Of a stretch of DNA of 64,000 bases, positions 18,867 to 43,560 are shown one piece after another. Source of the DNA: Candidatus Amunia macphersoniae (GTDB taxonomy: Bacteria > Chloroflexota > Dormibacteria > Aeolococcales > Aeolococcaceae); contig JAEKNN010000058.1 in assembly GCA_016464795.1 (NCBI GenBank), forward strand, positions 966 through 64,965, read 5' to 3'. The translations under genes were made by a program, and so were the position numbers. Under the pieces are notes generated by a model. That model searched no databases. It was not told where the DNA came from and was given only the letters and a program-made list of their open reading frames with translations. The first letter of the stretch is position 1; each line of letters starts with the position of its first letter.

Positions 18867-19625
18867 TCAGCCGACCGACTCGAGGATCTCGTCGGGGATC
18901 TCGGCGTTGGCGTACACCTGCTGCACGTCGTCATCCTCCTCGAGGTTCTCGAGGAGACGGATCACGGCGGTGGCCTGCTTGGCGTCCAGCGACACCGACG
19001 TGCTGGGGTCCATGGTCAGCTCGCCGGATTCGACGGTGTGCCCGGTGCCCTCCAGCGCAGTACGTGCCGCCTCGAACTGCGCGGGGCTGACCGTCACCAC
19101 CACGGCATCGTCGGCGACGGTGATGTCACCGTCGGCGCCGAGGTCGACCACCTCGAGCAGCTCGAGCGCCAGCTCGTCAGGATCGCGGCCGGCGGCCGCC
19201 ACACGAAGCACCCCCTGCTGGCTGAACATCCAGCCGACGCTGTTGGTCTCACCCAGCGACCCGCCGGAGCGGGTGAAGAGGTTGCGGATGGCGGCGACTG
19301 TGCGATTGCGGTTGTCGGTGAGCACGTCGACCATCACCGCCACGCCGTGGGGGCCATAGCCCTCGTAGCGGATCTCCTCGAGCTGGGCGCCGTCCTTGCC
19401 CCCGACGCCACGCTGGATGGCGCGATCGATGTTGTCGGCGGGCATGTTGACCTCGCGGGCCTTCTGGATGGCCAGGCGCAGCCGGAAGTTCGAGCTCGGA
19501 TCGGGGCCGCCTTCACGAACCGACACCGACAGCTCGCGCGCGATCTTGGTGAAGACCTGGCCACGCTTGGCGTCGACGATCGCCTTCTTGTGCTTGATCC
19601 CCGCCCACTTGCTGTGACCGGACAT
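18867..19625 (-). CDS. yebC: YebC/PmpR family DNA-binding transcriptional regulator
   Basis: MSGHSKWAGIKHKKA...GYGP is the diagnostic N-terminus, and the gene has the conserved position upstream of ruvC. Confidence 0.9.
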   Translation of the reverse strand: MSGHSKWAGIKHKKAIVDAKRGQVFTKIARELSVSVREGGPDPSSNFRLRLAIQKAREVNMPADNIDRAIQRGVGGKDGAQLEEIRYEGYGPHGVAVMVDVLTDNRNRTVAAIRNLFTRSGGSLGETNSVGWMFSQQGVLRVAAAGRDPDELALELLEVVDLGADGDITVADDAVVVTVSPAQFEAARTALEGTGHTVESGELTMDPSTSVSLDAKQATAVIRLLENLEEDDDVQQVYANAEIPDEILESVG

Positions 19626-19719
19626 GAGCCCTCCGTGCCTCCGAACAGGCGTTTGCCATTGTATTGCTGGCGCTGCCGTGCAGTCTATGAGTCGAGGCGG
19701 TTGCCGCTGCAGTGGAGTC

Positions 19720-19831
19720 GGGGTCGGTGCCCCCGCGACAGCCGGCTCGGTCAGGGCTTCGACGGCATTGGCGGCGCTTCGCGCCTCGGCCGTCTGCAGA
19801 ATCTACCGGCCGTCACGGGGGCACCGACCCC
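19720..19831. repeat. Perfect 16-bp inverted repeat (GGGGTCGGTGCCCCCG / CGGGGGCACCGACCCC) separated by an 80-nt spacer, in the yebC upstream intergenic region
   Basis: The arms were read directly at 19720-19735 and 19816-19831. No coding potential is apparent in the region. Confidence 0.7.
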
Positions 19832-19906
19832 TCTCTTGGTGCACGGCGGCCCTACTCGGACGGGTGACCAGCTCCCCACTACGCGATGTCTGGTGGCATC
19901 GAACCG

Positions 19907-20360
19907 TCAGGTTTGCGGCTGGGCACGGCACCACTCGCACGCGAACGGCCAGCTGCCGAATCCCGTGTCCGGCGTGATGTGCCCAGCACCCTCGAAGATG
20001 GAGGCGGTGATCCCCAGAGCGTCGCCGTAGAGGGATTGGGCGCCGGCCGGGTTGTACGGGTCGGCGTCCGAGCACGCCATGGCGATCTCCCCGTCCACGC
20101 TGGCTCGCACCGCGTCGGCGTCGAACCTGTCGAGGCGAAACGACGCCCCACCGACCGGTAGGCATTCGGATGCCGGCGGTGAGACGAGCAGCAAGCGGTC
20201 GACCGGGTGGGCCGCCCGGAGTCCGCGCTCGGCGGCACGAAACCAAAGCAGGCACGCCAACGAGTGGCAGACGACGACCCGCTGCTCCCCGTCGAGAGCG
20301 GCGAGCTCTTGGTCGAGCACATCGAGCCACTGCTGCAACTGCGGCGCGTCGGGCTCGGGG
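19907..20360 (-). pseudogene. RBBP9/YdeN-family serine hydrolase (alpha/beta fold), 5'-truncated remnant
   Basis: The C-terminal ~150 aa (…LQQWLDVL…VVCHSLACLLWF…LLLVSPP…AGHITPDTGFGSW) align to the YdeN/RBBP9 family from about residue 38 onward. The N-terminal beta-strand/HG…HW segment is missing, and the reading frame instead runs into the 3' end of the adjacent methyltransferase gene. Confidence 0.5.
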
Positions 20361-20385
20361 AGCGATCGCTGACTCTCTTGTCGGG

Positions 20386-21252
20386 TCAGCCTTTTCTGGC
20401 GCGGAGGTAGGCGACCGCCAGGCGATTTTGGCCAACGCCAGCCTCGACGGACCCACGCAGAGCGCTCAGGAACAGTGACGCCTCCGTGCTCTCCAGCGCC
20501 CCGTCGACAGCCTCCAGCAGGGTGGGGGAAAGCGGATTCGGCGACGAATGAAGCACCTGTTCCCAATCGCGTGGGTGCGGTCGCGTGACCGAGACCTGCA
20601 GGATGAGCTCGACCTCCTCGAACCCGGCGTCCTCGGCAAGCCGCACGAGATCGTTCTCGTCGAAGTCCATCATCGGTCGCAGGTCTGGACCGCAGCGCCG
20701 CTCGATCTCGGCGACCACGCGGTCTCGCAGGCCCGCCACCGCCGAGACATCCCACCCCCAAAACATGCCCGGCGGCTCGGGGAACATGCGACGGTTGATG
20801 GGCTCGAAGATTGACAGGCGACCCCCCGGCCGGAGCACACGAAAGAACTCCGCGAACGCATCGCGCTTTCGGCTCGCGTAGATGAGGACCGATCGGGTCG
20901 TCACCGCGTCGACGCTCTCATCACCGACGCCGGCGAGATCCTCAGCGGAAGCCTGCACGTAGCTGGAGCGATCAGACACACCCATTGCCTCCGCCCGCTC
21001 CTCGCAAAGCCTCAGCAGCTTGCTGGAAACATCGCTGAAGACGACTCGCAGCGCGCCTCTGAGGGCTTCGAACGCTCCGAAACCGATCAGTCCGTCGCCG
21101 CACCCCACGTCGAGCAGAACGTCGTTCGGTCGCAGCGCCGCGCCGCCGAGGACACCGTCGCGATATCGCATCAACTCATCGCGCTGATCAGCCTGGAGCT
21201 CCGACCCTCCTTGACGGCGCAGCAGCAACCAGTCGGACCACGCGTCAGTCAC
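20386..21252 (-). CDS. Class I SAM-dependent methyltransferase
   Basis: VLDVGCGDGLIG (motif I) and LRPGGRLSIFE (motif post-II) are present. The GTG start at 21252 overlaps the GNAT gene TGA (GTGA). Confidence 0.75.
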   Translation of the reverse strand: MTDAWSDWLLLRRQGGSELQADQRDELMRYRDGVLGGAALRPNDVLLDVGCGDGLIGFGAFEALRGALRVVFSDVSSKLLRLCEERAEAMGVSDRSSYVQASAEDLAGVGDESVDAVTTRSVLIYASRKRDAFAEFFRVLRPGGRLSIFEPINRRMFPEPPGMFWGWDVSAVAGLRDRVVAEIERRCGPDLRPMMDFDENDLVRLAEDAGFEEVELILQVSVTRPHPRDWEQVLHSSPNPLSPTLLEAVDGALESTEASLFLSALRGSVEAGVGQNRLAVAYLRARKG

Positions 21253-21824
21253 GGGCGATCCATCCTGTGCACCCAGGCGTGGAGCGCGTAGCGGCGTCCT
21301 TTGTCCTCCACCATCGCCGGTGCCCTCTCCGTGAGTTGAAAGCCTGCACGCCGGGCCACATCGATGCTGGCAAGGTTGTCCAGCTCGGCCTCCACGGTCA
21401 CCGCGTCAAACCCAAGACCGTGGGCATGACGCGTGATCAGTCCAAGAGCTCGCGCGGCGACCCCCCTCCGCCGGTATGCCCGCCCCACCATGTAGCCGAC
21501 GCTGCCGGACTCCAAGTTGAGCATGACCTCGCCCTGGGGCTCTCGGCCGTCAGCTGTGATTGCCAGCTGCAAGCGCCTCCCGGCGACACGAGCCTGTTGT
21601 GCTCGCTCGATGAAATCCCTGGCGGCGGCTGCATCGAAGAGAGATGCCACAGGCAGACGGTAAGCGATCTCAGGATCATCGAACAACGTCATGACCGCGT
21701 CGACGTCCGCGTCCGTCCATTCGCGCAGGATCAGACCGTCTCCGGCGATGGAAACATCCGCACAGCCGTCGCCAGCAGCGGTTGCCCTCCTCACGCAAGC
21801 AGTATCGCGCTTCGTCAACCCCAC
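21249..21824 (-). CDS. GNAT family N-acetyltransferase (RimJ/RimL-like)
   Basis: …MVGRAYRRRGVAARALG… is an acetyl-CoA binding motif A region within a GNAT fold. The exact start is uncertain. Confidence 0.65.
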   Translation of the reverse strand: MGLTKRDTACVRRATAAGDGCADVSIAGDGLILREWTDADVDAVMTLFDDPEIAYRLPVASLFDAAAARDFIERAQQARVAGRRLQLAITADGREPQGEVMLNLESGSVGYMVGRAYRRRGVAARALGLITRHAHGLGFDAVTVEAELDNLASIDVARRAGFQLTERAPAMVEDKGRRYALHAWVHRMDRP

Positions 21825-22275
21825 GAAATTCAGATTGGGGTGGGTGATCGAAGCATGCCTCGCAGCTCTTGAGGAGTGTGGGCGCCGACTTGACGAGCTC
21901 GACCGGCATCCACATCGTTGGGCACATGGCGTCGCACCTGAAAGCGCGGGCTTCCAGTCTCCTGCTTGGCTCTCGCCCGCTGAGCCGCTTCGTGCAGATC
22001 AACCGTCTGGTGATGCTCACGACCGGCGCTGGTTCAGAGTCGAGCCCACCATTCTGGCTGCCGCGCGCCCGATACACGGCCTTCGTCGATTATGACCCTG
22101 AAGGCGCGGTGCGGTCCTTCCGAATCCTCGATGCCCGCAACCGTGGATTTCCCGACTGGAGCTCCATTCCTGCGGAGGTTGGCCAGGTCTCGGCGCCCGA
22201 GGGGTTTTGAGGTCAGTGCACGAGCAGGGATATCTCAACGGCCCTGCATGCCGGCTCTGTTCTGCGGCGCATGCA

Positions 22276-22665
22276 TCACACCAGCCGGAAGCGCTCGCAC
22301 ACCACCAGTGTGTCGCCAGTGGCGCGGTCAGCCGACCAGTATTGCAGCCCGGCAGCTCGCCAATCGGCGACGGTGGTGTAACCCTCGCCTTCATCGATGG
22401 CGAACTGAAGGTCCACATCGTTCAGGGCGACCACCTTCACGTCGATGACCTCGATGGTGCCGAGAGGCTCGCCGGAATACCCAGCGAGGAAGAACCACTC
22501 GCGTGCTCGCGGCAGGGGTTCCGCAGTGAAAGGCTCATATTCCGAACGAAGGCTGGCGGTTGCGGTCTTCTCGCCGCGGAGGACAGCGGCGACCAGCTTC
22601 TTCCGCAGCTCGCTGCGAGGGGCGCCGAGTTCGTATGGACGGACCGGCGGCGAGCGACGAGGCAT
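22276..22665 (-). CDS. ASCH domain protein
   Basis: LRGEKTATASLRSEYE…GEPLGTIEVIDVKVV…EGEGY is the ASCH fold signature. Confidence 0.6.
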   Translation of the reverse strand: MPRRSPPVRPYELGAPRSELRKKLVAAVLRGEKTATASLRSEYEPFTAEPLPRAREWFFLAGYSGEPLGTIEVIDVKVVALNDVDLQFAIDEGEGYTTVADWRAAGLQYWSADRATGDTLVVCERFRLV

Positions 22666-22758
22666 CCCTCAATCATAGGAACCAACATCGGGGCAGCCCG
22701 GCCCAGCCGGCTCCGCAGCACGGACTCCGGTGGCGCCGCCGGGACGCATACTCCGGCC

Positions 22759-23319
22759 ATGGACGACACCGCCGCGAGCCACGAAGGACCTTCGGTGACT
22801 GCGCCGGCGGTGTGGCCGGCGCCGCGTGCTGTCGAGATCCCTCGCGACGCCGACGAGTTGACCATGCTCGAAGCGTATCTGGACCACTACCGCGAAACCT
22901 TCGACCTGAAATGCGCCGGGATTGCTCCTGCCCGGATGTCGGAGCGCAGCTCACCACCGTCGACCATGAGCCTGCACGGCCTGGCGTGACACCTCGCCGG
23001 TGTCGAGCGATGGTGGTTCGCCATCCATTTTGCCGGGCTCGAGCTGCCCCTGCTGTATTACAGCAACGACGACCCTGACCAGGACTTCGAATCCCTTGAC
23101 GGTGATCCGCTGGAGGCTCTCCAGGTGTGGCGCGGTGAATGCGTGCGCTCGCGTCGCATCGTCGATGAGGCGTCGAGCCTCGTCCAACGAGGCGCCGTCG
23201 ATCGCAACGGCGGCTACACGTTGCGCTGGCTGATGCTGCGGATGATCATCGAGTACGCCCAGCACGCCGGACACGCGGACTTCCTGCGGGAGGGCATCGA
23301 CGGAGCAGTGGGCGCCTGA
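22759..23319 (+). pseudogene. DinB/DUF664-family (mycothiol-dependent-enzyme-like) protein with an in-frame TGA stop at 22987-22989
   Basis: One reading frame encodes …LEAYLDHYRETFDLKCAGI…STMSLHGLA*HLAGVERWWF…ALQVWRGECVRSRRIV…LRWLMLRMIIEYAQHAGHADFLREGIDG, a full-length DUF664/DinB_2 protein. The TGA sits where the family has a conserved Arg (CGA>TGA transition). Confidence 0.6.
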
Positions 23320-23350
23320 GCCTCATCCCCCCACCGCCAGGCTGCGCGTT

Positions 23351-24865
23351 CTAGAACGAGCCGCCCGCACCTGCGCCGCCCCCCGCTGCTCCTCCGCCCA
23401 TGCTCGCGGATGACCCGCCGCCGCCGAAACCGCCGTCGACGCCCAGCCAGGCACCGTAGAAGCCCGAATCACCCTGGGTGGGTACCAACCACCGTGGTTG
23501 GATGCCGCGTGCGTCGGCCCGCACCAGGAGGGGGTCGATGTCGCGCGTGCATGCGAGCGCGATCGCCCAGGGCAGGCAGTGCTCCACGTCGATCGCTCTC
23601 GCCACCTGCTCGTCAGGCTTGCCAGCGGCGGCCACGAGCCCACGCCGAAACCCCTCCCAGCGCGCTGCCAGTGCCGCTCCTGTGTCGGTGTTGCGGGAGA
23701 TCGTGGCAGCCACGCCGAACGCGACCACAGCAGACGTGCACGCCACCGCGATGCCGGGCAGCGCCCACGCCTGGTGTCCGATCAGCGCGGCTGCGGCATC
23801 CACGACGACCAGCGCCATCGATATCCACGCCAGCCATCGGAGGGGCGCCGCCTCACGGTCGGCATCGGCGCTGTACAGGCCGCGGTCCCGAAGGTCTGTG
23901 ATCAGCTGGGTGCGAAACGCGGCGAAGTTCCGGCGCAGGCCACCCAGGCGGCTGGTCGGGATGGTTCCGTCCTGTCGACTCGCGTCAGCCAGCCGCAACC
24001 AGACGACGCGCTCCCATGGCGCGTGCGCCTTGGACTCGTCCACGAGACGGACCACGTAATGTTTGTGGTCCGTCGACTCGATGGTGAGCGCGCCTCGCCT
24101 GGCCAGGTCGAACACCGTGGCAAGCACGAGAGATCGCGTGGGATGCCCGTTCCAGACGGCGCCGGCGATGGCGGGCTCGTCGTCAGTTGGTGGTTCGGTC
24201 GTTTCGGTGACCGGCGCGGCCACGCGGTTGCGCCGCAGCCACACTCGTCGTGCCCGTCCAACCACGACGATCAACAGCACCAGGGCCGCGATGTTGAGGG
24301 GGACGGCGGCAACGGCTGCAGCGACCCCTCTCGCCAGGGTGGGTGCCGGTGGACCGGACAGCAGATCCTCGTGCACCGCCGCCAGCGTCGCCGTCAACGC
24401 ACCGCTGAGGTCTCCGCTGAGCAGTCGCGGCGACATGATGTTGTCGTACAGGCGCGACAGCTCGGTCTGAGGCAATCGCCCCGCGGACAACCGGTGACCG
24501 GCGTAGAGGGCGGCGCTGCCGTGTTGGTTGTTGGTGCCTGGTTGAATGTCGACGAGCATCACAAGACCGTCTTGAGCTCCTGTGACGCTCTCGATGTCAG
24601 CACCGTTCATCAGCGCCTCCGCCTCGGCGATCGCCGTTGTGGAGTTGGCAGATTCCACCTGTACCTGCACCAGCACCGGGGTGCCCGCGGCCGCAACCGC
24701 CGTGGCCTGCGCACTGACGTTGTTGAGCTGTGCGCCGGTCAGGGCATGGGCGGCATCTCGAACCTCCGCGTGCGTTCCCAGCGCCAGTGCAGGAATACCC
24801 GTGGCGATGGCCGCCACGGCAGCCAGCGGCAGGGCCATCCGGAGACGCCGCCCGTGTCTGGACAC
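23351..24865 (-). CDS. DUF2207/TPM-like domain membrane protein with a Gly-rich C-terminal tail
   Basis: It has a signal peptide, an N-terminal TPM-like region (LVMLVDIQPGTNNQHGSAALYAG), central TM segments, and a C-terminal …GFGGGGSSASMGGGAAGGGAGAGGSF tail typical of the DUF2207 family. Confidence 0.5.
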   Translation of the reverse strand: MSRHGRRLRMALPLAAVAAIATGIPALALGTHAEVRDAAHALTGAQLNNVSAQATAVAAAGTPVLVQVQVESANSTTAIAEAEALMNGADIESVTGAQDGLVMLVDIQPGTNNQHGSAALYAGHRLSAGRLPQTELSRLYDNIMSPRLLSGDLSGALTATLAAVHEDLLSGPPAPTLARGVAAAVAAVPLNIAALVLLIVVVGRARRVWLRRNRVAAPVTETTEPPTDDEPAIAGAVWNGHPTRSLVLATVFDLARRGALTIESTDHKHYVVRLVDESKAHAPWERVVWLRLADASRQDGTIPTSRLGGLRRNFAAFRTQLITDLRDRGLYSADADREAAPLRWLAWISMALVVVDAAAALIGHQAWALPGIAVACTSAVVAFGVAATISRNTDTGAALAARWEGFRRGLVAAAGKPDEQVARAIDVEHCLPWAIALACTRDIDPLLVRADARGIQPRWLVPTQGDSGFYGAWLGVDGGFGGGGSSASMGGGAAGGGAGAGGSF

Positions 24866-25799
24866 CTGCCTAGCCTAACCGTCTGCGCCCGCGACTTCGA
24901 CCCCCGGGTTACGCCTGCCAGACGGCGTGATCTTGTTGAAAGACCACACGCGCTGACCACCACGGTGACCCAGGAGGAAGCTGACAGACGCTCTCCCCTA
25001 AAACCGAGCGGACCCGTTGACGCAGGACGTGACGGCAGGGGACATGGGCCGCTGGGCCGGTTGTGCCGTCGTCCCGGCTGGGCGGCGGATAGCTGATCAA
25101 CTTGATTAGGACTAGTCATCACGCCGTCCGCAGTGTGCTTCAATGACAGTGTCGGCTTCCATAGAATGGTCGTGGTGCCAAGAGAGTTTCGAGTGCTGTG
25201 GCGGATTTGTCCATCGCCAGAGGAGGACGAGCGGAACGCTCAACGCTTCTTTCGCGAGAAGTTCGCAGCGGAGGGCCTGCCGTCAGATCCGACTGCAACT
25301 GCTGCTGCCAAATCAATTGCTCCGATCGTTCCGTCAACGGGCATTCGCGTGCGAGCTCGGCGAGGGTCCAATCCCTTTCGCAGCAGGCGATTTCAAATCC
25401 AGGTGGATGGCTCTCGGCCGATCAGTCAGCCTTGGGAAGCGACTTCCGTTATCCCCGTCTGTCCTGGTTCACATGTGGTCAAGTGCTACTTCTTAGTTGA
25501 CTTCTTTTTACACGGCGGAGGGTCGGCCGTGGCGGTCGACGTCCCTCCAGGGCAGATTGTGGCAGTGGTGTATATCCCCCCCAAGTGGGGGATGTGGGCG
25601 GGCACCTGTCTGGTGCAAGGGCGAAGCGAGGATCCGTTAGCAGAGGATGCTCAAGATATACCCTGAATCGTCCTGGGTTTCGTGGAACTACGGCCTGTTG
25701 TTCATCAGCTTATGGTGGCCGAACGCGCGGACGGTTCGCAGTCACTGGCAGGCACCTCAAAGCCCAGAATAGGCTCGGACTTTCGGCGGCAGGACCGCC

Positions 25800-26961
25800 T
25801 AGTCGTCTGTAACACTAAAAGCTTGACTGTGAAGTGTCGAGGTGAGATGCTTCACCGAGATGTCGGCGCCGGCTCCTGCACTCCCTGTATCTGCTGAACA
25901 GCGCGCGGTTCTGGAGACGTGGACGCGTAGTCGCGTTCTTTCGCATCGTCAGGTGCAGAGAGCGCAGCTGGTGCTCTTGGCGGCCGACGGCCTGGCCAAT
26001 GAGATGATCGCCGCCCGGCTCGGCATGTCCAAGCCCAGCGTGCTCAAGTGGCGCGCCCGGTTCGCAGCTGATGGGGTCGACGGCCTCGAGGAGGCCCCTG
26101 GACGGGGACGACGACGGACGTACGGACAAGACTTCGTCGAGCGCGTGGTCAGCGCCACCCTGCGCGCACCTGACGATGGCACCACCCACTGGAGCACGCG
26201 TTCATTGTCAGGGCGGGTCGGTGCCAGCCACGCCACCGTGCACCGCATTTGGCAGGACATGGGACTGCAACCGCATCTCACGCGCACCTTCAAGTACAGC
26301 ACCGATCCCCACCTCGACGAGAGGGTCAGCGACGTGGTAGGGCTGTACATGAACCCGCCGGAGAACGCGATCGTGCTTTGCGTCGATGAGAAGTCACAGA
26401 TCCAGGCGCTGGACCGCACCCAGCCGCTCTTGCCGATGAAGCCACATCAGGTGGAACGCCAGACCCACGATTACAAGCGGAACGGCACCACCACTTTGTT
26501 CGCTGCCCTCGATGTGGCCACCGGTGAGGCCACCGGCGCCTGCTACCAGAAGCATCGGGCGACAGAGTTCCTGGCATTCCTAGAGCTCGTCGTGCGCGTC
26601 TATCCGCGGCGGCAACTCCACGTCATCGTTGACAACGCCTCCTCGCACAAGACACCGGAGGTACAGCAGTGGCTGAGTCGGCACCGCCGCGTTCATCTGC
26701 ACTTCACGCCGACCGGGTCGAGCTGGCTCAATCAGGTGGAGACGTGGTTCTCGGTCCTGAGCCGGCGCGCGATTCGGCGCGGCGTGTTCCGGAACTTGAG
26801 CGCGCTCATCGACGCCATCCAACGTTTCCTGGACGGATGGAACGAGCGCTGCAAGCCCTTCGTTTGGGTGAAGTCAGCTGAGCAAATTCTCGCTCAACTC
26901 AACCGTCAACGTTTCCATGAGACGGTCCACTAGCTAGCCTGAGTCCACGGCGCGACGACTG
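25800..26961 (+). mobile_element. IS630-family insertion sequence; boundaries are approximate
   Basis: It contains an intact DDE_3 transposase. The only flanking inverted match found is a 7-bp AGTCGTC next to a TA at 25800-25801, so the terminal inverted repeats are not resolved. Confidence 0.5.
25860..26933 (+). CDS. IS630-family transposase (HTH + DDE_3 endonuclease domain)
   Basis: There is an N-terminal HTH (…ANEMIAARLGMSKPSVLKWRARF) and a DDE_3 catalytic region (LCVDEKSQIQALDRTQP…YKRNGTTTLFAALD…IVDNASSHK…SSWLNQVE). Confidence 0.85.
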   Translation: MSAPAPALPVSAEQRAVLETWTRSRVLSHRQVQRAQLVLLAADGLANEMIAARLGMSKPSVLKWRARFAADGVDGLEEAPGRGRRRTYGQDFVERVVSATLRAPDDGTTHWSTRSLSGRVGASHATVHRIWQDMGLQPHLTRTFKYSTDPHLDERVSDVVGLYMNPPENAIVLCVDEKSQIQALDRTQPLLPMKPHQVERQTHDYKRNGTTTLFAALDVATGEATGACYQKHRATEFLAFLELVVRVYPRRQLHVIVDNASSHKTPEVQQWLSRHRRVHLHFTPTGSSWLNQVETWFSVLSRRAIRRGVFRNLSALIDAIQRFLDGWNERCKPFVWVKSAEQILAQLNRQRFHETVH

Positions 26962-26990
26962 CACGAAGGGAAGGAAAGGATGGGAAACCG

Positions 26991-27299
26991 ATGAGCGAGA
27001 TGGGCCAGCCCGTTCCACCGTTGCCTCCCGAGCCCACCCTTTCCGCCCGCGCCGCCCCGTCCGATGTCATCTTGGAAGGTGACCTTGACCACGGTGACCA
27101 GCGTCATCTTCGTGACCAACCGACGCAGAACTGTCCACACGAGCACGCCCGAGCAACTGGAGACCCAGTCTCGTCAGGCGCTGGTCCACAACCTCTTCTC
27201 GGTTGGTGGGGGTTCCCCTTCGGTTTCATTTGGACGCCGATTGCGTTGGCGAGCAACCGCCGAGCACTGCGTGAGCTCCGCGCAGGGGCCGGCAGGTAG
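26991..27299 (+). CDS. Hypothetical small protein (102 aa)
   Basis: The ATG is preceded by a strong ribosome-binding site (AAGGAAAGGATGGG). A C-terminal hydrophobic segment GWWGFPFGFIWTPIALA is present; there is no recognisable family. Confidence 0.3.
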   Translation: MSEMGQPVPPLPPEPTLSARAAPSDVILEGDLDHGDQRHLRDQPTQNCPHEHARATGDPVSSGAGPQPLLGWWGFPFGFIWTPIALASNRRALRELRAGAGR

Positions 27300-27612
27300 T
27301 TCGGCACGGAGCCGCAATCGCACAGAGAGAAACCCGCCTGGACGCCGCGTCAGTCGACGCTGGCCGACACTGCCGCTGAGGAATACGGTCACGAGCGCAC
27401 CATGCCGAATCTCGCAAACAATGGTGCTCACCCGTGACTGTGAGGGCCGGCAGCCGTTCAGGCGGGGTTCCGGTTGGCAGAATGCTGGCGTGACCGGTGG
27501 TCGGAGTCCCCTGACCGTTGGCTCGGCAGCAGGCAGACCTTCTCATGCGGTCCCGTTCGCAGTTGCAAGGACCGCGGTGATCGCAGCGGGTGAGTCCGGC
27601 GTGGTCGGAACG

Positions 27613-27912
27613 ATGGCTGTTGAGCTCAGAAACCCAAACACCTTCCCGTTCTGGCTCCTGGTGGTCACCGCCTACTGCGTCTTCGTCTTGGCGTTCGCGT
27701 GGGTAGCGGCGCTCATCAAGGAGATCAAACGGGAGACACCGCGCGCGACGCTTCTCGTCCTCGCGGTACTGCCTCCGGTCGGACTTTTGTTGTGGGCCAT
27801 TCAGCTCGACGCTCGTCTCGGATGGCGCTCGGTTGTCACCATTGCATTCGGCGCCACGTTATTGGCGGGGGTGTTCGCCATGTGGGCTGGTGGCGCCATG
27901 TCCGCCGCCTGA
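27613..27912 (+). CDS. Hypothetical small membrane protein (~99 aa, 3 predicted TM helices)
   Basis: MAVELRNPNTFPFWLLVVTAYCVFVLAFAWVAALI… is hydrophobic. The ATG is at 27613; the upstream part of the listed ORF is not protein-like. Confidence 0.4.
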   Translation: MAVELRNPNTFPFWLLVVTAYCVFVLAFAWVAALIKEIKRETPRATLLVLAVLPPVGLLLWAIQLDARLGWRSVVTIAFGATLLAGVFAMWAGGAMSAA

Positions 27913-27925
27913 GCCCCGTTCTCGC

Positions 27926-28420
27926 CTATGGCAGGTTGGCCAGGTCGCTGAGATCGCCCTGGATCTGGGCGTTCGCGGCGTCGAGCGAGTACGACAAGTT
28001 GGATCGCTGGACAGCGTTCGCGTAGTTCGACAGCAGCGAGTCGGCGATCGCCGTCCACTGTGACAGGTGCTGATGGAGCAGTTGATCGATGTCGGCGACG
28101 TTCGCGCTCACCGTGATCGTCTTCTCGCCCGCGAGGAACATCGCGATGGCGTTGTCTCCGCTCTGCTCGTCGGTCATGCACTGAGTCTTGTCGGGTTGCC
28201 CGCAGGCGGTTGTGGCAGCACCCGGCCTGAACTCTGGCGAGCGCAGGTTGGTGGCGACGAGCTGCTTGAGCCTGTCGACAGCGCTTGGAGGGGACGCCGT
28301 CGGAGGCACTGGAGACTGCGAGGCAACGGTTCCGCCACTGGTGGCCGGTGAGCCGCACCCGACAACGTTCCCCAGTGCTGCCGATCCGAGGGCCACCAGG
28401 ACCACGGCGTTCGCCCGCAT
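27926..28420 (-). CDS. Hypothetical lipoprotein
   Basis: The ATG at 28420 encodes MRANAVVLVALGSAALGNVVGCGSP, a signal peptide with a lipobox. Confidence 0.55.
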   Translation of the reverse strand: MRANAVVLVALGSAALGNVVGCGSPATSGGTVASQSPVPPTASPPSAVDRLKQLVATNLRSPEFRPGAATTACGQPDKTQCMTDEQSGDNAIAMFLAGEKTITVSANVADIDQLLHQHLSQWTAIADSLLSNYANAVQRSNLSYSLDAANAQIQGDLSDLANLP

Positions 28421-31769: not shown

Positions 31770-32111
31770 TCAGCGGACCACGACGGGTCGAATCTCCGCA
31801 AATCCGCTCGGCGACGGGAAGGTGCGGACGATCGCGATCGCCTCGTCGAGATCGGCGACATCGAGGATGCCGTATCCGCCGACCACCTCTTTGGCCTCCA
31901 TGAACGGTCCGTCAACAATCGTCGACTGGCCGCCGCGCAGCACCACCGTGGTGGCTGTGTCGGGGTGCTGGAGTTGATGTCCTGCGACGATCTTCCCCTC
32001 AGCGGCAAGGCGTCCCCACCACTGCTGGATCTCGCCGAAGATCCGGTTGCGCTCGTCCTCGGGCGCCTTGTCCTCCCACTCGCTGCGCGACAGCAAGACC
32101 ATGTACTGCAT
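31770..32111 (-). CDS. YciI-like (YCII-related/DGPF) domain protein
   Basis: MQYMVLLSRSE…DGPFMEAKEVVGGYGILDVADLDEAIAI is the YciI fold. GGAGG lies 6 nt upstream of the ATG at 32111, and the gene is directly upstream of the ECF sigma gene. Confidence 0.75.
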   Translation of the reverse strand: MQYMVLLSRSEWEDKAPEDERNRIFGEIQQWWGRLAAEGKIVAGHQLQHPDTATTVVLRGGQSTIVDGPFMEAKEVVGGYGILDVADLDEAIAIVRTFPSPSGFAEIRPVVVR

Positions 32112-43412: not shown

Positions 43413-43486
43413 TGGGCGCAATTGGATTCGAACCAATGAACCTCTGCGATGTCAACGCAGCGCTCTAACCAGCTGAGCTATGCGCC
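43413..43486 (-). tRNA. tRNA-Val (anticodon GAC)
   Basis: The minus-strand sequence GGGCGCATAGCTCAGCTGGTTAGAGCGCTGCGTTGACATCGCAGAGGTTCATTGGTTCGAATCCAATTGCGCCCA folds into a cloverleaf. The acceptor stem is GGGCGCA/TGCGCCC, the anticodon loop is TTGACAT, and the T-loop is GGTTCGAATCC. No CCA is encoded. Confidence 0.85.
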
Positions 43487-43560
43487 CGCGCGCGGCGGGC
43501 CCCCGGCCCGGGCGGCCGATGATACCAGCCGTGCGTCCCCTCGAGGACCTGTGCGGCCCC

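Follow-up and report, generated by a model that had tools for sequence, protein, structure and literature searches.

The window, that is, the whole 64-kb stretch of DNA analysed, carried an MST/DUF664 gene whose translation comprised 186 codons plus a terminal TGA and contained one internal stop (SLHGLA, stop, HLAGVERWWF; Table 1). Exact matches of neighbouring proteins to MBJ7610174-MBJ7610180 placed the window in a metagenome-assembled genome of Candidatus Amunia macphersoniae (taxid 3127014; Candidatus Dormibacterota), a name that Candidatus List No. 6 (PMC12281948) attributes to Montgomery et al. 2021. PF04978 is MST (mycothiol S-transferase), formerly DUF664, of the DinB superfamily. With Arg put at codon 77, the translation matched PF04978 at 125.2 bits (cut-off 27), residues 36-182 covering HMM positions 1-149 of 149 in a single stretch across the stop, and TIGR03083 (mycothiol-dependent maleylpyruvate isomerase domain) gave only a weak, sub-threshold match. 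Because the PF04978 homology ran across the stop, both sides of it are parts of one gene; that homology, together with the 85 of 87 family-conserved columns that were kept, is more than chance would produce. The uninterrupted frame of about 150-190 aa that characterizes PF04978 MST/DUF664 was broken at codon 77 by the TGA. Judged from its sequence, the gene belongs to PF04978 by descent and is a pseudogene as written. The first in-frame start 3' of the stop in the ORF listing was a GTG at 23125, leading to 64 residues only. The initial annotation had described a full-length DUF664/DinB gene in one frame with this TGA as its sole interruption, and both descriptions were confirmed.

Table 1. Positions of the interrupted gene, its parts, its hairpins and its neighbours in the window.
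Feature	Position	Strand	Basis or remark
MST/DUF664 (DinB-fold) gene, pseudogene	22759..23319	+	186 codons, one interruption; translation, Pfam PF04978 E=4e-36, homologues
ATG = Met36, possible true start; 151-aa homologues and Pfam domain begin there	22864..22866	+	
In-frame TGA, codon 77 (family: conserved Arg); next base C	22987..22989	+	Translation, alignments, L088
CAC = invariant His78, candidate first metal ligand (putative role), directly 3' of the stop	22990..22992	+	Alignments
Hairpin TGACACC-tcgcc-GGTGTCG, includes the TGA	22987..23005	+	RNA folding
Hairpin GATGGTG-gtt-CGCCATC, encodes part of conserved ERWWFAI	23009..23025	+	ViennaRNA
Normal gene terminator, likewise TGA	23317..23319	+	Translation
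ASCH-domain gene, divergent neighbour	22276..22665	-	Pfam PF04266 E=1.2e-13; exact protein also in L083
DUF2207/TPM membrane protein, convergent neighbour	23351..24865	-	Pfam; exact match MBJ7610180.1
IS630-type transposase (DDE_3 + HTH)	25842-26933	+	2.5 kb downstream, lower-GC stretch

The further neighbours (YebC, a methyltransferase and a GNAT acetyltransferase) made the context unremarkable, and no MST paralogue was found within the window. A lower-GC stretch extended over approximately 24000-28000 (63-64% GC vs. 69% overall), and the ORFs at 25133-25666 and 27064-27912 that flank the transposase had no Pfam match. The MST frame was open at 22207-22989 (+), reaching 550 nt upstream of the ATG and lying antisense to the ASCH gene. 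On a contig identical to this region (L088, see below), gene calling produced a spurious 257-aa ORF that ended at the internal TGA, instead of ASCH; that the frame is open 5' of the stop had led to this call over an antisense gene, which is a caution for annotation. Scanning 22500-23500 for promoters and terminators yielded nothing, and is uninformative at 69% GC.

The TGA was present in a Logan assembly from another run (SRR31090145; L088, 7,511 bp) that was 100% identical to window 19597-27107, and a second Logan contig (SRR24198227; L083) was 100% identical to window 21668-22980; the samples behind the metagenome-assembled genome and both Logan runs may be related or even the same, their independence being only partly established, and a literature search on the run accessions found nothing. 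The second contig ended at window 22980, 7 nt before the TGA, which low coverage or a local variant could explain. The change at codon 77 was a substitution and not an indel. Given that another run and another assembler produced the same base, and given the type of change, faulty sequencing or assembly is an unlikely cause, and the TGA appears to be a genuine base. Neither the exact full-length R77 protein nor its Met36-start version nor C-terminal fragments were present in a 15-billion-protein collection, and protein look-up returned no record of the 76-aa N-terminal product.

Homologues were sought in a 5.8-billion-cluster protein set, which yielded 946 (best 81% identical), 120 of them listed. 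The listed homologues were single chains of about 150-230 aa covering both halves of the gene; a split gene with normally separate halves, a possibility that the initial annotation had named against its own reading, was rejected on these grounds. The codon-77 column in an alignment of 33 homologous proteins held Arg 32 times, Gln once and Cys never, and His78 was invariant in both protein alignments (A1 and A2). At the DNA level, among 82 loci listed from genomes and metagenomes, codon 77 was Arg in 80 (CGG 42, CGC 20, CGT 7, AGG 7, CGA 4), Gln in one (CAG) and Asn in one (AAC), with Cys or a stop in none. Across the 88 loci scanned, no stop at codon 77 was found among the approximately 85 other homologous loci listed, of which the genome-contig scan contributed two, the listed matches of the metagenome scan being mostly distant relatives.

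In one of the closest relatives, L087 (encoding P0012, 79% amino-acid identity), GCG CGA CAC corresponded to the GCG TGA CAC of the window, and four others that were fetched individually (L084, L085, L086 and L001) had CGT at codon 77. Because L087 carries CGA, a single C>T transition suffices to give the TGA. The direction of the change, from Arg to stop, would follow from an ancestral state deduced from relatives at most 81% identical. CGA made up about 10% of the Arg codons in the coding-like ORFs of the window, and the same gene uses it at Arg84, seven codons 3' of the TGA. The conserved Arg and the CGA>TGA transition had both been proposed in the initial annotation, and each is upheld by these alignments. 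A 44-nt stretch of the window (31871-31914) was 93% identical to L087 6333-6376, inside a YCII-domain gene call of L087; the two sequences were otherwise related via the MST gene only, and the stretch is probably a conserved coding motif.

Other broken copies were few. Searching with the 76-aa N-terminal fragment gave three candidates, of which the sole match (P0127, on L089) was a frameshifted copy. This MST homologue (L089 6001-6605; ENA ERZ25039475 contig_40579) had been called in two pieces, of 84 and 117 aa; many neighbouring genes on the contig (SBP_bac_1, GH31, beta-lactamase) were also split, which suggests an assembly rich in indel errors. At two of the approximately 85 other loci listed, one internal stop interrupted a domain that was intact elsewhere: a TGA in place of the conserved Trp of ERWWF in L010 (209-712; Ga0193743_1007600), and a TAG between HYRSD and AP in L044 (3012-3476; Ga0075418_10056777), each of them a pseudogene or an error. 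Because these two loci carry single stops, sporadic breakage appears to be background in the MST/DUF664 family, whose members are numerous, often several to a genome and probably dispensable.

Among the 87 columns conserved at 90% or more in 120 homologues, the window deviated only at codon 77 (R77 to stop) and at D103N; intact homologues deviated at a mean of 2.1 of the 87, and half of them at two or more. The rest of the gene contained no frameshifts or further stops, as the initial annotation had also read it in calling the protein otherwise intact. This intactness makes the mutation look recent; it fits either a recent mutation or a gene still in use, and the data alone cannot separate the two.

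An AlphaFold model of P0012 formed a four-helix bundle (pLDDT 84, pTM 0.82; helices 27-46, 66-85, 111-131 and 149-175), the four-helix DinB fold being thus predicted on this homologue and not on the window protein. The best solved matches of the model were the DUF664 protein DR_1065 (2ou6) and M. tuberculosis MST (8f5v, TM 0.64/0.69), the latter solved with mycothiol and Zn2+, and other DinB/YfiT proteins ranked below both in fold comparison. Sequence and profile searches of the PDB gave no significant match, and His78 aligned with a His of 2ou6 in an alignment that was weak (E = 0.26). MST is a homodimeric DinB-fold metalloenzyme whose metal is held by two His and one Asp on the bundle helices (PMC10950700). 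His78, His169, His172 and Asp174 were invariant in 34 sequences and are candidate metal ligands; the Arg77-His78 pair lay at the start of helix 2, and His169, His172 and Asp174 in helix 4. The 76-residue product, ending at Ala76, would on this model consist of helix 1 only, without any of the candidate metal ligands, and the truncated protein can safely be presumed to have lost its function.

TGA terminated 33 of the 42 coding-like ORFs (GC3-supported) in the window, whose G+C content was 69%. Reassignment of TGA (genetic codes 4 and 25) was rejected, TGA being the main terminator in the window and ending the 22759-23319 gene too. Thresholds of a scan for embedded stops were loosened until the stop at 22987 was recovered, and this was the only credible in-frame stop found in the 64 kb; the remaining matches were attributable to antisense-frame composition on the + strand and to ordinary gene boundaries on the - strand (e.g., YebC/RuvC). 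No tRNA-Sec was found within the window, in which the only RNA gene found was a tRNA-Val (GAC) at 43413-43487 (-), and no link between Dormibacterota and selenocysteine was found in the literature library searched.

The 67 nt from 22984 folded into two hairpins (-30.3 kcal/mol; z = -2.4 vs. shuffles). The initial annotation had drawn attention to the downstream one as beginning 18 nt after the TGA: this hairpin exists, yet the distance was wrong, as 19 nt separate it from the TGA and its first base (23009) is the 20th. ViennaRNA extended it from GATGG-tggttcg-CCATC to a 7-bp stem with a 3-nt loop. Every base of it recurred in L003, where codon 77 is CGG (Arg), and L004 (also CGG-Arg) folded into both hairpins with energies nearly equal to those of the window; across L003, L004 and L001, all with Arg codons, the hairpins were identical or equivalent. 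Because homologues with Arg codons have them, the hairpins are not specific to the TGA allele, and on the sequence comparison they arise from the coding sequence itself and do not constitute a SECIS. An ancestral C would make 22987-23005 a perfect 7-bp inverted repeat, the stem of which the mutation weakens (C-G to U.G). Because the mutation weakens this stem, the TGA did not arise from palindrome-templated correction.

The interruption is most probably a real, recent CGA>TGA nonsense mutation inactivating the MST/DUF664 gene of Ca. Amunia macphersoniae, the reading that the initial annotation had preferred and that Arg conservation, the CGA of the relative and the intact remainder of the gene favour. 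Its sequencing-error alternative has been weakened. An artefact, or a consensus built on a minority variant, with the organism truly carrying CGA and an intact gene, would be in keeping with the metagenome-assembled origin of the window, with the contig of the third run that stops just short of the site, and with the error-type breaks in other assemblies of the family such as L089. This is decidedly unlikely: a different assembler and run accession gave the TGA in 7,511 bp that did not differ at any position, error-prone assemblies typically give indels whereas the change is a substitution, and the intact allele is missing from the protein collection.

Leaky termination, in which near-cognate readthrough (probably by Trp) would give a small full-length yield and residual function, is unlikely. 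TGA followed by C is a weak termination context in E. coli, the base after the TGA is C, and the 109 codons downstream are fully intact. A young pseudogene, however, predicts this intactness equally; Trp is unlikely to be neutral at a near-invariant Arg adjoining the invariant His78, and nothing that would promote readthrough was found to be confined to the TGA allele. Programmed readthrough would preserve the position of the stop among diverged relatives, and a stop at codon 77 was kept in none of those listed. Retention of the TGA on purpose, with low-level readthrough, aided by the weak TGA-C context and the stop-containing hairpin, supplying a little full-length enzyme as translational down-tuning, is highly improbable; if true, it would explain the undecayed downstream two-thirds of the gene. 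Programmed recoding, either as selenocysteine with the hairpin as SECIS or through reassignment of TGA, is exceedingly improbable. The hairpin is stable, its loop contains G and U, its distance from the TGA loosely fits bacterial SECIS spacing, and the 67-nt segment folds better than its shuffles. Sec, however, normally takes the place of a catalytic Cys, whereas the homologues listed had Arg at the site, apart from the single Gln and Asn; neither Cys nor a stop occurred among them. The hairpin encodes the conserved ERWWFAI and is shared with Arg-bearing homologues; TGA is the normal terminator, also of this very gene, and the window held neither a second such stop nor a tRNA-Sec. Selenocysteine was rejected on the absence of Cys at the site in homologues and on the hairpins being common to those bearing Arg, and the recoding that the initial annotation had listed among its alternatives found no support.

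The preferred reading, the nonsense mutation, would have proceeded by a C>T transition through which the CGA at Arg codon 77 became TGA; the predicted product of the gene is a DinB-fold metal-dependent thiol-transferase-like enzyme. Translation would stop after Ala76, one residue before the invariant His78, helices 2-4 would be lost, and the gene would have been inactivated, probably recently. The event matters little; it would be the loss of a dispensable detoxification-type gene in an uncultured soil Dormibacterota lineage. Were the stop read through or recoded, the gene would be a curiosity, and no finding points to it.

The gene resembled M. tuberculosis MST (8f5v) and D. radiodurans DR_1065 (2ou6) in its full PF04978 match and in its candidate His/His/Asp, and differed from the MST family in that its frame is broken at codon 77. 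The window host belongs to Candidatus Dormibacterota and not to Actinomycetota, and mycothiol is no more than a candidate thiol co-substrate there; sequence identity to the solved MST/DUF664 structures was only about 20%. B. subtilis YfiT (1rxq) and S. aureus BstA (5wk0) had the same four-helix fold and were lower-ranked matches (10-16% identity); DinB/YfiT-like proteins bind metal by three His, and MST by two His and one Asp (PMC10950700). Bacterial selenoprotein genes (e.g., fdhF) were similar in having an in-frame UGA and a nearby downstream hairpin, but unlike them the window gene has a UGA that replaces Arg and not Cys, a hairpin that is not specific to the UGA allele, and no Sec machinery in the window. 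With ordinary single-nonsense pseudogenes the gene shared its one C>T step, its intact remainder and the absence of any sign of recoding, with no notable difference; it is an ordinary young pseudogene.
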